From: Nitrospirota bacterium
GTDB lineage: Bacteria > Nitrospirota > UBA9217
Assembly: GCA_035498715.1 (NCBI GenBank)
Contig: DATJZV010000026.1
Span: 11,923 to 75,922 of the forward strand
Length of the DNA stretch: 64,000 nucleotides
Reading direction: 5' to 3'
The notes beneath the pieces were generated by a model, which was given only the letters and a program-made list of their open reading frames with translations, was not told the origin of the DNA and did no database searches. A program made the position numbers and the translations under genes. Position 1 is the stretch's first letter; each line of letters opens with the position of its first letter. This document shows positions 8,782-31,586 of this stretch, in pieces.

Positions 8782-9990
8782 ATGGATAACAACAATCGAT
8801 CAGCAAATGAAGCAAATGGTGAGGAGAGCTTTGCGGACATGTTCGAGAAGAGCTTCAAGAGGCAGGGCCGGCTTGAGCCCGGACAGATGGTCGATGCAGA
8901 GATCGTCAAGATCTCGGCGGACTGGATCTTTCTCGATCTCGGCGGAAAAGGAGAGGGCTACCTCGATAAGAAAGAGATGATCGATGAGGCTGGTAATCTT
9001 ACCGTCAAAGAAGGCGATACGGTCCGTGCCTACTTCATTTCCTCGGAAAATAATGAGATGCATTTTACTACGAAGATTGGATCGGGTCCGGGAAAACAGA
9101 GTCAGCTCGAGGATGCTTGGAGAAACAAGATTCCAGTCGAGGGCACGATTGCAAAAGAAATGAAGGGCGGGTTTGAGGTCAAGATCGGCAGCGTGCGCGC
9201 CTTCTGCCCCTTTTCGCAGACGGGAATCCGTCGAGAGGAAAACCAGGCTGATTATATAGGTAAGTCCCTGTCCTTTAAGATCATTGAGTTCGGCGAGGAT
9301 GGCAGGAACATCGTGCTCTCCCGGAGGGCTATTCTGGACGATGAACGGCGGAACAAGAAACAGGAATTAAGAAAGACGCTACAAGAGGGCATGAAGGTAA
9401 AAGGGAAGGTGACCTCCATCCAGAAGTTTGGCGCTTTTGTGGATATCGGCGGAATCGAAGGCCTGCTCCCGGTTTCCGAGATAGCCTGGGGCAGAACGGA
9501 GAAGGTCAGCGACATACTTTCCTTAGGCCAGGAAGTCGAAGTGATCATCAAAAAGCTCGACTGGGATCAGGACCGGTTCTCCTTCAGCCTAAAGGACGCA
9601 TTGCCCGACCCTTGGGACAGTGCTGCGGATGCCTATCCTGCGGGTTCCTTTCACATCGGGACGGTCTCCCGACTCGCCCCTTTTGGCGCATTCGTCACCT
9701 TGAGGGAAGGGATAGACGGACTTATTCATATCTCTAAGTTGGGCGCCGGCAGGAGGATTAATCATCCACGCGAGGTGCTCAAGGAAGGGCAGACCGTCGA
9801 GGTAAAGATCGAGGCTTTTGACCGTTCAAGCAGAAAGCTCTCGCTCTCTTTAGCGGAAATCAGCCGCGAAGAAGAAGAGGCGGCGGCTACGCTTAAGGAC
9901 TATCAGCAGAAGGCCGCGGCTGTTCCGAAGACTATGGGGTCGCTTGGAGATATGCTGAAAGAGAAGATGGAACAGAAAGAGAAAAAGTAG
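8782..9990 (+). CDS. S1 RNA-binding domain protein (RpsA-like, about four S1 repeats).
   Basis: Repeated S1 OB-fold blocks (GxVKxIxxFGAFVDIGG, EVKIEAFD...). Start is ATG 8782 with a G-rich RBS; a GTG at 8752 is an alternative. Confidence 0.7.
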   Translation: MDNNNRSANEANGEESFADMFEKSFKRQGRLEPGQMVDAEIVKISADWIFLDLGGKGEGYLDKKEMIDEAGNLTVKEGDTVRAYFISSENNEMHFTTKIGSGPGKQSQLEDAWRNKIPVEGTIAKEMKGGFEVKIGSVRAFCPFSQTGIRREENQADYIGKSLSFKIIEFGEDGRNIVLSRRAILDDERRNKKQELRKTLQEGMKVKGKVTSIQKFGAFVDIGGIEGLLPVSEIAWGRTEKVSDILSLGQEVEVIIKKLDWDQDRFSFSLKDALPDPWDSAADAYPAGSFHIGTVSRLAPFGAFVTLREGIDGLIHISKLGAGRRINHPREVLKEGQTVEVKIEAFDRSSRKLSLSLAEISREEEEAAATLKDYQQKAAAVPKTMGSLGDMLKEKMEQKEKK

Positions 9991-10341
9991 CTAGGCAATA
10001 GATGCTCAGAACCGCTTATTTTTCTTGATTTCAAATCGATTCGAACAGATACCATTCTCAAACGGCATTCTGCAGGTTCCAGGAGCAGCCAACGTGTCGC
10101 TTCCGTATAATTTAATGTTCACTGATATAGACATGAGAATCAACCAGCCTTCATGTTTTAGTCACGATAATGGCCACGATAAATAACGCAATCGAACTCC
10201 CTGTCCCGTCAGGGCGTTTGATCTAAATCGATTCAAAACCACCATTTGTATATTTTCTATCAATCACCGATACTTTGCCGCGTGTAAAAAAGCAGATTAG
10301 TTTGGTACAATGTGCATAATATCTGTATTGAGTCTGATTGA

Positions 10342-10773
10342 GGGGGAGACAGCGGGAACCAAAAGCTCCACGCATGGCCGTTCGATAAGATCATCAGGAT
10401 GCTCACGTACAAGGCCAGGCTCAAAGGCATCTGCATTGTCAAGGAATCCGAGGACTACACGAGCCAGACATGCTGCCTGTGCGGCACAACGTGCAGATCC
10501 AATCGTGTCCATCGTGGCCTCTATGCCTGCAACCAATGCGGTGCCGTCATCAACGCTGACGTGAACGGCGCAATAAACATCTTAAAAAGGTATCTCCCGG
10601 AGCAAATAAGTGTCTCCTGGAGTAGTGGCTGCCTGGCACAGCCTGCGGTCAACCGGTTTGCCTGGAGAAAGACCAGGCCCGTAACAACTGCCCATAAACC
10701 GGGGACGTGGCAAACATCTCTGCCGCATCCGCGAACAGGATCAGCAGTGGCCCTTAGTGAAGTAAGGGCCTGA
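10342..10773 (+). pseudogene. IS200/IS605-family tnpB (OrfB) 3' remnant: C-terminal ~140 aa only (RuvC-III plus the Zn-ribbon).
   Basis: The frame opens straight after a TGA at 10339-10341. Translation ...KLHAWPFDKIIRMLTYKARLKGICIVKESEDYTSQTCCLCG...CNQCGAVINADVNGAINILKR matches the TnpB C-terminus (YTSQTC, CxxC Zn-ribbon, NADxNGAxNI). About 250 aa of N-terminal TnpB is missing, and upstream is AT-rich non-coding DNA. Confidence 0.7.
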
Positions 10774-11197
10774 TTCGGGAATCCCCGGCCTTCAGGCCGG
10801 GGAGGATGTCAAGTTTGTTCATGTCATATCGTAATTCATAGATCCTTAACTCAATAAGAGTCACCTTAATAGGACCTTCATTTGTGAGAATAATATGAGG
10901 GCGTGATCCCTCGACATTGCTCATATTGGCGCGCAGGTGAACTGATGGCTCCAGGAACAGCTTGCTAATTTGTCTCTCCTCCACGCTGCTTTCCTTTGCG
11001 ATGTTGTTCGCCTGACACGAGAAATAAAGCGCGGCCAAAGAGGGTATATACGGTGAATACCGTAAGGCCGGACTTTTATAAATATATTTGAAGGCTGGAA
11101 TTATAAACTTCTCGATTACCATCATGGCTGAATGTTTCAGATTTAATAAATCTGGTCTGCTGAATTGACGTTTTCTCGTTTTTTTGCCAGATTTCAT
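10754..11197 (-). CDS. Hypothetical protein (147 aa) with a basic N-terminus, encoded in the AT-rich island.
   Basis: ATG start with GGGGAG/GGAG 5 nt upstream. Local GC is about 40% against about 57% for the window. No recognisable domain. The 3' end is read through the palindrome at 10783-10802. Confidence 0.4.
   Translation of the reverse strand: MKSGKKTRKRQFSRPDLLNLKHSAMMVIEKFIIPAFKYIYKSPALRYSPYIPSLAALYFSCQANNIAKESSVEERQISKLFLEPSVHLRANMSNVEGSRPHIILTNEGPIKVTLIELRIYELRYDMNKLDILPGLKAGDSRIRPLLH
10783..10802. repeat. Perfect GC-rich palindrome CCCCGGCC-TTCA-GGCCGGGG, about 10 nt past the tnpB remnant stop.
   Basis: Seen directly in the sequence. Its position is consistent with an IS200/IS605 right-end subterminal hairpin. 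No flanking T-run on either strand. Confidence 0.5.
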
Positions 11198-11473
11198 CTT
11201 ATCTCCCCATCGCTATATGGAAGTTGGTCGCATAGTGCGGTAGCCCTTGCTTCGACTGCCCATGCATGCAATTAAGCGATAGGTCCACTGTAACAGATAT
11301 TCGTCTTTTTGTAAAATGAAAGGACTGTAAGTCTTTGATATCGTTATGCTCAATTGGCGGTTCACATGCCAAATGGATAAAAAATACCAACGGTACATAC
11401 TAATGCTCATTATGTTTTCTGAGATTTTGCTCAATGCTTGAATTTTCCATCCTATCCTGATACAGTGTAACCT

Positions 11474-13108
11474 GTGATCACGGCCTTCATTATTTTCATT
11501 ATCACCTACATCTTCATCGGTCTTCGCCAGATCCCGCGGGTGCACATCGACCGACCCGCAGGCGCTCTCATTGGCGCCGTGCTGATGATAGCCTTCGGTG
11601 TGCTTACTCTCGACCAGGCCTTTGCCGCCATAGACATGCATACCCTGCTCCTTTTGCTCGGGATGATGATCATCACCGTCTACCTCAGGGCCGCTGGGTT
11701 CTTCGAGCTCATGGCAGACAAGATTCTCTCGCTCTCGAAAACGCCGCTCCAGCTTCTGATCTTCGTCACGGTCTCGTCGGGACTTCTCTCGGCTTTGTTC
11801 GTGAACGATACCATCTGCCTGCTCTACACGCCGATCATCCTTGAGGTGACGGTGCAGCTGGGGGTGAACCCTATACCGTATCTGATCGCGCTTGCCACAT
11901 CGTCGAACATCGGAAGCGTCATGACTGTGACTGGAAATCCGCAGAACATGCTCATCGGCATTTACTCGAAGATACCTTATCTCTCATTCTTCGGCGCACT
12001 TCTTCCGGTGGCACTCCTGGGCTTCATCGTGAGCATTATGGTGCTCCGGTTTGTATATCGCGATGATATGAAGAAGAAGTGTTTCCTAAAGAGGCCAACC
12101 ATGCCCGCCTATGATGTTAAGAGGCCGCTTTTGATCAAGTCGCTTCTGGTCTGTACTGCAGTTCTTGTGGCATTCTCATTCGGCTATCCGTATTCGCTCA
12201 CAGCCGCCGCCGGTGCGGTCATGCTGATGCTCATCGGCGGCATGCGCACGGAGCGGGTCCTGGAAGGTGTGGACTGGACACTCCTCCTGTTCTTTTCAGG
12301 GTTGTTCGTAGTGATGCATGGGGTCGAAGTCTCGGGCCTTGCCTCGGCGCTGATCAATCGTATGGGCAATGTCGCATCGTATTCGACGGAGGGTAAAATT
12401 GCGGGGCTTTCCCTGATCACCGCCGTCCTTTCGAACGTCGTAAGCAACGTGCCTGCGGTGATGCTGCTGAAGCCACTCACGCAAACGCTCGGTGGCGACC
12501 GAATCTTCTGGCTTACCCTTGCCATGAGCAGCACGCTGGCAGGGAACCTCACGCTCATCGGGTCGGTCGCGAACCTGATCGTGGTCCAGCAGGCCAGGAG
12601 AAGGGTGGAGATCGGTTTCATGGAATATTTCCGTGTCGGTGCGCTGATCACGGCCGCTACCGTCGCCATCGGTATTCTGGTCCTGGCTGTTGAAGTAAAA
12701 ATGGGAAACGGCGCCGAGGCCTATGCGGCTGAGATGAAGGAAAAGCAGATGACCGTGACGTTTATGCCCCGCGGCCACATAGCAGGCCACCGGACATTCA
12801 CGGTAGTGCTCGTGTGCGATACTGACCAGTCGCGGGCCAGGGGGCTCCAGGGATTCAGGCCTCTCCAGCCGAAAGAAGCTGCACTTTTCGTGTTCGACAG
12901 ACCCGAGGCCGTGACCTTCTGGATGGGGAGCGTGACCTTCCCGATCGATATCATTTTTGTTAGCCCTGATGGATACATTGTCGAAGTTTCTCCCCACTGC
13001 CTGCCGGGAAGCCATGAGTTCTATGGCTCCGGGGTCCCGGTGAAATGGGTGGTCGAGACAGCAGCGGGGTCAGGGGTGATGGTGGGGGACAGGGTAGTGA
13101 TCAAGTAG
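11474..13108 (+). CDS. ArsB/NhaD-superfamily anion permease (YbiR/CitMHS-like) fused to a C-terminal DUF192 (COG1430) domain.
   Basis: About 410 aa of polytopic membrane protein with ArsB/NhaD-like repeats, then ...VVLVCDTDQSRARGLQGFRPL...FWMGSVTFPIDIIFVSPDGYIVEV..., which is a typical DUF192 signature. One uninterrupted frame of 544 aa with a GTG start. Confidence 0.65.
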   Translation: MITAFIIFIITYIFIGLRQIPRVHIDRPAGALIGAVLMIAFGVLTLDQAFAAIDMHTLLLLLGMMIITVYLRAAGFFELMADKILSLSKTPLQLLIFVTVSSGLLSALFVNDTICLLYTPIILEVTVQLGVNPIPYLIALATSSNIGSVMTVTGNPQNMLIGIYSKIPYLSFFGALLPVALLGFIVSIMVLRFVYRDDMKKKCFLKRPTMPAYDVKRPLLIKSLLVCTAVLVAFSFGYPYSLTAAAGAVMLMLIGGMRTERVLEGVDWTLLLFFSGLFVVMHGVEVSGLASALINRMGNVASYSTEGKIAGLSLITAVLSNVVSNVPAVMLLKPLTQTLGGDRIFWLTLAMSSTLAGNLTLIGSVANLIVVQQARRRVEIGFMEYFRVGALITAATVAIGILVLAVEVKMGNGAEAYAAEMKEKQMTVTFMPRGHIAGHRTFTVVLVCDTDQSRARGLQGFRPLQPKEAALFVFDRPEAVTFWMGSVTFPIDIIFVSPDGYIVEVSPHCLPGSHEFYGSGVPVKWVVETAAGSGVMVGDRVVIK

Positions 13109-30748: not shown

Positions 30749-31519
30749 ATGATGAAACGATTGATTTTTTTGCTGGCTGCTGGCTTCCTTTCCCTCACGG
30801 TTTCCAGCGCCTACGCTGCTTCTGATACGGAGAAGCCCGCACCGGGGCCGCAGGTCCCCTCGATCGAGAGGACAGCGGAAACTGTGGGACCATCTCTCTC
30901 GGGCAAGGTAGTGGAAACGATGAACGCAGGTGGGTATACCTATGTTCGCCTTGAAAAGAACGGAAAGAAGACCTGGGTCGCGGTGCCTGAGATGAAAGTT
31001 TCGGTGGGACAGCAAATGGCGTTCCAGCCAGGGCAGGAAATGAAGAATTTTACGAGCAAGACTCTCAATAGGACATTCGATAGCGTCGTTTTTTCCGGTG
31101 GACCTGCCGTTCCTCAGCAAGGCACCGGCGATAGGACAGCGTCCATGAAAGCGCCTGGCAGCAAAGCGGCGGTGGTAGCGTCCAACGAAAAATTTACCGT
31201 GGAGAAGGCTGGTGGTCCGGATGCCTATACGGTCGGCGAGATTTATGCGAAAAGGGCAGCGTTGGACAAGAAAACCGCTGTCGTCAAGGGCAAGGTCGTG
31301 AAGGTTTCGAAGGCGATCATGGGGAAGAACTGGATACACATTCAGGACGGCACCGGAAATTCCGGTAAAGGGACGCACGACCTGGTGGTTACGACAACCT
31401 CGGACACGGCTGCCGTGGGCGACACAGTTACGGTCAAGGGGACTATCTACAAGGACAAGGATTTTGGGGCTGGATATAAATATGACGTGATCATGGAAGA
31501 GGCGACCATCCAGCACTGA
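30749..31519 (+). CDS. Secreted tandem BOF/YgiW-family (bacterial OB-fold) protein.
   Basis: Signal peptide MMKRLIFLLAAGFLSLTVSSAYAA; two repeats of GKVV...W..I.DGTG...V....VGDTVTVKG. Confidence 0.55.
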   Translation: MMKRLIFLLAAGFLSLTVSSAYAASDTEKPAPGPQVPSIERTAETVGPSLSGKVVETMNAGGYTYVRLEKNGKKTWVAVPEMKVSVGQQMAFQPGQEMKNFTSKTLNRTFDSVVFSGGPAVPQQGTGDRTASMKAPGSKAAVVASNEKFTVEKAGGPDAYTVGEIYAKRAALDKKTAVVKGKVVKVSKAIMGKNWIHIQDGTGNSGKGTHDLVVTTTSDTAAVGDTVTVKGTIYKDKDFGAGYKYDVIMEEATIQH

Positions 31520-31553
31520 AGCAGGATGGCTTAGCCAACTGACATCGTTTCTC

Positions 31554-31586
31554 AAGCCCCTCGCTTAGGCGAGGGGCTTTTTCGTT
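31554..31586 (+). terminator. Rho-independent terminator.
   Basis: AAGCCCCTCGC-TTAG-GCGAGGGGCTT followed by a T-run. Confidence 0.7.

Follow-up and report, generated by a model that had tools for sequence, protein, structure and literature searches.

Positions 10342 to 11470 of the window, the whole 64,000-nucleotide stretch of a Nitrospirota contig that was analysed, hold the 3' end of a tnpB gene, a GC-rich hairpin and a convergent open reading frame (ORF) of 147 aa, and they raise the question of whether such a locus is a decayed insertion sequence (IS) or a retained omega-RNA locus. Both options were named in a first-pass annotation of the sequence. The best explanation, to which a probability of about 0.88 is given, is an IS insertion into a gene called hyp255 here, followed by one deletion that left an immobile stub. 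A tnpB-only IS200/IS605 (IS1341-type) element of ~1.49 kb would have inserted 3' of a TTTAT target motif inside this small AT-rich accessory gene of an uncultured soil Nitrospirota, with the IS right end abutting codon 128. A later single deletion of ~1.35 kb would have taken the IS left end and IS positions 1-1016 (two thirds of tnpB) together with the adjacent 336 bp of hyp255, the two sides being rejoined at a 1-nt microhomology. The remainder consists of the TnpB C-terminal codons, an intact omega scaffold, the right-end hairpin and a host-gene flank in the place of a "guide" (Table 1). The locus is a case of ordinary recent IS decay and no new system.

Table 1. Features at the locus, given in window coordinates.
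Feature	Positions	Strand	Basis or remark
Accessory segment (hyp255 with flanks and IS remnant)	10057-11264	.	Flanked by the S1-domain and CitMHS/DUF192 transporter genes
hyp255 3' tip, last 14 codons (SIRLNTDIMHIVPN) and stop	10297-10343	-	14 codons at 10300-10341; C-terminus of P0071; alignment to L006 resumes at 10343
tnpB 3' fragment	10342-10776	+	143-144 sense codons and native stop at 10774-10776
IS 3' stub, 470 bp	10343-10812	+	IS positions 1017-1487 of the 1,487-bp tnpB-only IS200/IS605 (IS1341-type) element
Omega-RNA-like scaffold, complete	10588-10812	+	Sub-threshold Rfam matches and consensus fold
147-aa ORF	10754-11197	-	Convergent with the tnpB fragment; GGAG-type ribosome-binding site
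Right-end subterminal hairpin, CCCCGGCC-TTCA-GGCCGGGG	10783-10802	+	Perfect, 8 bp, UUCA tetraloop; read from the sequence
Element terminus TCAA (right-end boundary)	10809-10812	+	Stub ends ...GGATGTCAA at 10812
hyp255 5' part, codons 1-128	10813-11197	-	Protein matches; DNA homology to L006 and L007 ends exactly at 10813
Putative guide-equivalent flank	10813-10828	+	First 16 nt past the right end; sequence of the interrupted gene

Directly after a TGA at 10339-10341, the frame 10342-10773 (+) stays open over 143-144 codons. Its translation reads NQKLHAWPF...YTSQTCCLCG...CNQCGAVINADVNGAINI and has NQKLHAWPFDKIIRMLTYKARLKG ahead of YTSQTCCLCG, with an E-x-YTSQTC motif, a CxxC...CxxC zinc ribbon and the RuvC-III motif NADVNGA. 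The truncated TnpB C-terminus that had been recognised here was confirmed by Pfam PF07282 (Cas12f1-like_TNB; E 8.7e-20, 71 bits, cutoff 26.3) and by NCBIfam guided_TnpB, which was matched at model positions 311-389 of 389 (the last 79) with an E-value of 2e-25 and 89.8 bits, a score below the 100-bit whole-protein cutoff because the C-terminus alone remains. The fragment is 88% identical to residues 99-240 of protein P0001 at the amino acid level. As had been noted, no tnpB coding sequence lies upstream: tblastn with the N-terminal 165 aa of a relative and with P0001 found no hidden N-terminal remnant in any frame. The window contains the last 143 codons instead of a complete tnpB ORF with RuvC-I, -II and -III, and blastn and tblastn self-searches found no further copies of the element inside the 64 kb. 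The in-frame TGA described just ahead of the fragment is present, but read on the other strand it is a Ser codon of hyp255, in the 3' tip that remains of this gene.

At the DNA level the stub is 91% identical to L001 2012-2482 and to L002 152-620, and its homology edges are constant, starting at 10343 and stopping at 10812 in every comparison. The whole element in L001 (996-2482) spans 1,487 bp and carries tnpB only, the gene being frameshifted and split into 165 + 240 aa, and an intact TnpB of 441 aa is encoded in L064 (631-1956, -), with 214 bits against guided_TnpB and Cas12f/TnpB as its nearest solved relatives. These copies bore out the proposed decayed, 5'-truncated IS200/IS605 remnant and, as had been anticipated, gave both ends of the element. 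Left ends (CATCTGCGCCGTAAAACCCCGTCTCTTCAGGGCGGGG...) were read at eight distinct junctions, each preceded by (A/T)TTAT, one of which L001 and L065 have in common. Right ends finish with ...GGAT(G/A)TCAA in 17 of the 18 distinct loci with a readable boundary, the exception being L077 with TCAG, and the flanks beyond are unrelated among the 18 loci, with complete divergence from the next base on. The palindrome just past the tnpB stop, correctly suspected to be a right-end hairpin, is kept across more than 17 independent copies, and the right end, subterminal hairpin included, is conserved and sharply delimited. The TAM, the subterminal hairpins at both ends and the guide-adjacent right end are hallmarks of IS200/IS605 elements.

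The family resembles the IS1341 group (ISDra2 TnpB, Halobacterium sotRNA elements) in the RuvC/zinc-ribbon C-terminus of TnpB, in a structured RNA that overlaps the tnpB 3' end and reaches the right end, in subterminal hairpins at the two ends, in insertion 3' of a short TAM (here (A/T)TTAT), in a scarless empty site and in many non-autonomous copies. The window copy differs in that the left end with its hairpin and preceding TAM and the first two thirds of tnpB are gone, and the stub is predicted for this reason to be immobile, able neither to transpose nor to make TnpB. The TnpB of this family also differs by a Gly for the RuvC-II Glu (IVGDL). This substitution was seen in L064, P0001/P0003 and L001, where STIIVGDL is aligned to EDL of Cas12f, and the same proteins have a conserved Glu just before YTSQTC. 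TnpB clades with a "rearranged catalytic site" (E to G, with an alternative Glu) were described by Altae-Tran et al. (PMC10691335), and the Gly-substituted RuvC-II looks like these, a resemblance that assigns no clade. A "mini-TnpB family" of ~240 aa, considered because every protein match was 251 aa or shorter, was rejected, as the short proteins come from frameshifted, deleted or contig-truncated copies and an intact 441-aa ORF exists.

Three alleles were found at the insertion site. In the empty-site alleles L006 and L007, which are ~99% identical to the window, hyp255 is uninterrupted (L006 1725-2420); window positions 9607-10343 and 10813-12849 are collinear with them, and 336 bp stand there against 469 bp of IS in the window. 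The empty site reads ...CCATTTTAT followed directly by GTTTGTTCATG..., with TTTAT and then GTTTG at the insertion point, a canonical TAM junction. The absence of the element from L006 and L007 indicates its mobility. The second allele, L003 (a 118.8-kb contig, ~99% identical), has the same right-end junction as the window, and its IS runs 31 nt 5' of the window breakpoint up to the contig end, these 31 nt matching L001 and L002. L003 stops 31 nt past the breakpoint, and a full-length IS at exactly this site is thus inferred and not seen; it would appear as ...CCATTTTAT joined to CATCTGCGCC....

Three assemblies carry the truncated allele, namely that of the window and those of L004 and L005. 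It has lost the 336 bp of the gene and IS positions 1-1016, and its deletion junction, ATTGAG-G-GGGAGAC, has one G common to the gene side and the IS side. An assembly chimera from a repeat-induced mis-join would be suggested by the multi-copy nature of the IS and by the break of the L003 contig inside it, but L004 (3,220 bp, 100%) and L005 (1,370 bp, 99.85%), independent assemblies from other samples, cross both junctions with the same sequence. Since the three agree, the truncated allele is no assembly artefact, and a chimera is considered extremely unlikely.

From these alleles, insertion followed by deletion is the order of events that we infer. The clean swap of 469 bp for 336 bp, and a remnant at another locus (L010) whose first IS position is no more than 8 nt away, would also suit an arrival of the 470-bp fragment in one step, by templated repair, gene conversion or a reverse-transcribed omega-containing RNA, with direct replacement of the 336 bp. 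Such a replacement is very unlikely, given that the right junction is canonical for insertion (TTTAT TAM in the empty site, TCAA element end), that L003 has this junction with the IS continuing upstream of the window breakpoint, and that truncated or deleted copies elsewhere have widely scattered breakpoints.

The convergent ORF was described as an orphan gene with a ribosome-binding site and no recognisable domain; its orientation, its ribosome-binding site and the lack of a domain match stand, but not its status as a gene. Proteins P0070, P0071 and P0072 match it at 79, 97, and 74% identity, respectively, over the first 71-89% only, and its sole relatives are proteins of 231-256 aa. Since the relatives align to this first part and their C-terminus is encoded left of the stub, the ORF consists of hyp255 codons 1-128 plus antisense IS, its last 19 codons (to 10754) being the antisense of the IS right end. 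It is thus no independent gene but the 5' half of a hypothetical gene of 231/255 aa that the IS interrupted, and the "147-aa orphan gene" is better annotated as a pseudogene fragment. Three further contigs encode an identical 147-aa product, each of them at this locus.

The 147-aa ORF and full-length hyp255 had no matches in Pfam, NCBIfam, PHROGs or PADLOC, and a profile search of hyp255 against the PDB gave noise only (E 0.06). With 63 representative clusters at E <= 1e-3 and proteins of ~210-300 aa, the hyp255 family appears real but uncharacterised. Its near-invariant residues (P0070 numbering) are P84, N106, G108, P109, Y187, R189, D192, Y202, G208, E213, and D248. The AlphaFold model of hyp255 (pLDDT 85) shows two long N-terminal helices and a beta-sandwich, and a Kir/KirBac-like assignment was not accepted at Foldseek TM-scores of 0.25-0.30 and rmsd of 11-12 A against the PDB.

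A scan of genomes with the S1-domain protein placed the locus among uncultured soil Nitrospirota, with 94% amino acid identity to MAG MFD10007.bin.2.19; exact look-ups of the S1 protein and of P0010 found no record. The gene order MiaB-like, S1, variable segment, CitMHS/DUF192 transporter and metallo-beta-lactamase-fold gene is conserved, and the content of the segment between S1 and transporter differs between Nitrospirota species. Synteny with relatives delimited the segment to 10057-11264, in place of which the closest species representative (L009, S1 protein 94% identical) has 172 unrelated bp. The GC content is 0.39-0.44 in 10050-10350 and 10800-11550 compared to 0.51-0.59 in the flanking genes, and since the IS fragment itself has 0.55-0.57, the AT-rich part is the host gene and not the IS. 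The AT-rich accessory island of the first-pass annotation is therefore real in that the closest species lacks it, but the IS is not its original content: hyp255 itself is accessory, as the segment is missing from the closest species, and the IS entered it afterwards. Across Nitrospirota species, the spacer between S1 and CitMHS (window 9991-11473 compared with L009-L057) ranges from ~260 bp to 2.2 kb with unrelated contents and looks like a local hotspot of accessory DNA. The neighbouring gene at 11474-13108 (+) encodes a 544-aa CitMHS/ArsB-type transporter fused to a C-terminal DUF192 domain, a fusion that is kept at related Nitrospirota loci.

The annotation had placed an omega-RNA region at the 3' end of tnpB, and this was supported by two Rfam models. 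The sot0042 model (RF02656) matched 10588-10803 over all of its positions (1-174 of 174) with 42.5 bits against a gathering threshold of 88, and HgcC (RF00062) matched 10747-10825 with 32.5 bits against a threshold of 50, so that neither reached gathering level; E-values were 1e-9 and 1e-5 for a 601-nt stretch and 1e-7 and 1e-3 for the whole window, respectively. The sotRNAs of RF02656 are omega RNAs of Halobacterium IS1341-type tnpB genes (PMC12558985), and they are tied to HgcC by a shared motif, the UUCA-tetraloop hairpin (PMC4615843). The window RNA is like both in its place at the 3' end of an IS1341-type tnpB, whose last ~60 aa it overlaps, and in a G+C-rich terminal UUCA hairpin that is followed by a GGAGGAUGUCA-like sequence, and it covers the sot0042 model at full length. 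It differs from them by large insertions and is no member by Rfam's own criterion, and its host is a bacterium (Nitrospirota), whereas the Rfam models that fit it best are archaeal ones.

Aligned to one another, 17 copies share a consensus fold with nine helices and 68 pairs; the paired fraction of cells is 98.3%, compared to 33-52% in slid controls. Compensatory changes occurred at four pairs against 1.2 +/- 0.8 in shuffles, a number reached by 1 of 500 shuffles, and this covariation support is modest because the 17 copies are just ~10% diverged. In the window RNA all 68 consensus pairs are standard, with a minimum free energy of -104.7 kcal/mol and a z-score of -4.46 against shuffled sequence. 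The family thus has a conserved structure from the tnpB 3' end to the right end and a variable guide behind it, as the flanks after TCAA all differ. The stub therefore still has the complete omega-like scaffold.

Whether this scaffold is retained or simply young was judged from other copies of the IS. A metagenome scan with the conserved omega core as probe returned 17 loci, among them one full-length element and at least five internal-deletion derivatives with both ends, whose breakpoints lie at 337/1188, 816/1082, 244/1123, 32/854, and 386/1111. An intact 441-aa tnpB was present at just one of the 17. Stubs without a left end are of three kinds, starting at IS position 1017 (window), 1025 (L010 = L070) and 1254 (L069), and the fusion proteins P0007, P0008, P0009, P0015, P0016, P0019, P0021, and P0062 add more scattered breakpoints. 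With so many different breakpoints, deletional decay is the norm in this IS family. The 3' end looks retained through ascertainment, because the probe sat in the omega region.

Most copies (L065, L068, L071, L076, L078, and L063) retain both ends together with the omega region but no functional tnpB. By sequence, the internal-deletion copies can be regarded as putative PATE/MITE-like elements bearing a guide RNA. The same IS family thus yields such forms (L065, L068, L071, L076, and L078, with both ends and the omega region), but the window stub is a dead-end remnant and no PATE, as the window has no left-end sequence. The older stub in L010 (3946-4405, -; = L070) lies at an unrelated locus, upstream of a MiaB-like gene in a related species (S1 91% identical), is ~80% identical and has stop codons and frameshifts. 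Its truncation falls within 8 nt of that of the window in IS position (1025 and 1017), a coincidence for which the a-priori chance is ~1%. A "discrete 470-bp unit", suggested by this likeness, was rejected since breakpoints are scattered across the family.

Copies with both ends have 67-68 of 68 omega pairs standard (0-1 broken) and the window stub has none broken, whereas in the older stubs that lack a left end 10 of 68 pairs (L010) and 9 of 68 (L069) are broken, with damage to the right-end hairpin as well. A retained or domesticated omega-RNA or sRNA locus, in which an RNA of ~225 nt is under selection as a trans guide for the TnpB of other copies or as a regulatory sRNA, would account for the completeness of the window scaffold and for a fold significantly better than shuffled. 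It also has precedents: a truncated tnpB pseudogene of Halobacterium keeps a probable sotRNA (PMC4615843), and PATEs frequently encode omega RNAs that have to act in trans (Meers et al., PMC10055086), so that use of the stub RNA by the TnpB of other copies is conceivable by analogy, though unsupported. The loss of pairs in L010 and L069 argues against selective retention, and empty, longer-IS and truncated alleles co-exist among strains ~99% identical, which leaves no time for visible selection. The closest species is without the entire segment. Upstream of the fragment no promoter of the sigma-70 type was detected, and a scan for promoters and terminators found sites no more frequent than in shuffled sequence. 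Retention is therefore not favoured and is rated improbable. The co-existing alleles and the segment-free closest species mean that the intact fold reflects youth and not selection, and under the preferred reading of insertion and deletion the stub would be non-functional and too young to have decayed. A domesticated TnpB (TldR-like or exapted) would be a full-length immobilised TnpB at a syntenic locus across taxa; the window has a protein fragment only, and its locus varies among near-identical strains and is missing in the closest species.

A TnpB omega RNA has as its guide the sequence directly next to the right end (PMC10055086). At the window locus this position is taken by the sequence of 10813-10828, which comes directly after TTTAT in the empty-site allele L006 and has no other match with up to two mismatches in the window. 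A stub omega RNA with the guide GTTTGTTCATGTCATA... might target the intact hyp255 allele next to its TTTAT TAM through TnpB supplied in trans and so enforce loss of the accessory gene, a reading that is held to be very doubtful. If it were true, TnpB from intact copies elsewhere in the genome would cleave incoming or recombined intact hyp255 alleles, the stub itself would be immune as its TAM is deleted, and a CRISPR-spacer-like function would have been born of IS decay.

Decayed IS200/IS605 copies are common and well understood, and for this reason the locus has little weight for biology at large. Its allele series (empty, occupied, truncated) in near-identical soil Nitrospirota gives the ends, the (A/T)TTAT TAM and the guide position directly, and concerns a TnpB family with a Gly-substituted RuvC-II and an omega RNA resembling the archaeal sotRNA and HgcC. 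The comparison of young and old remnants without a left end adds small evidence that orphan omega-RNA regions decay and are not retained. Elsewhere in the window, at 31506-31586 (+), a sub-threshold Rfam match to the Qrr sRNA (35.6 bits against a gathering threshold of 50, E 0.009 for the whole window) is probably due to chance.
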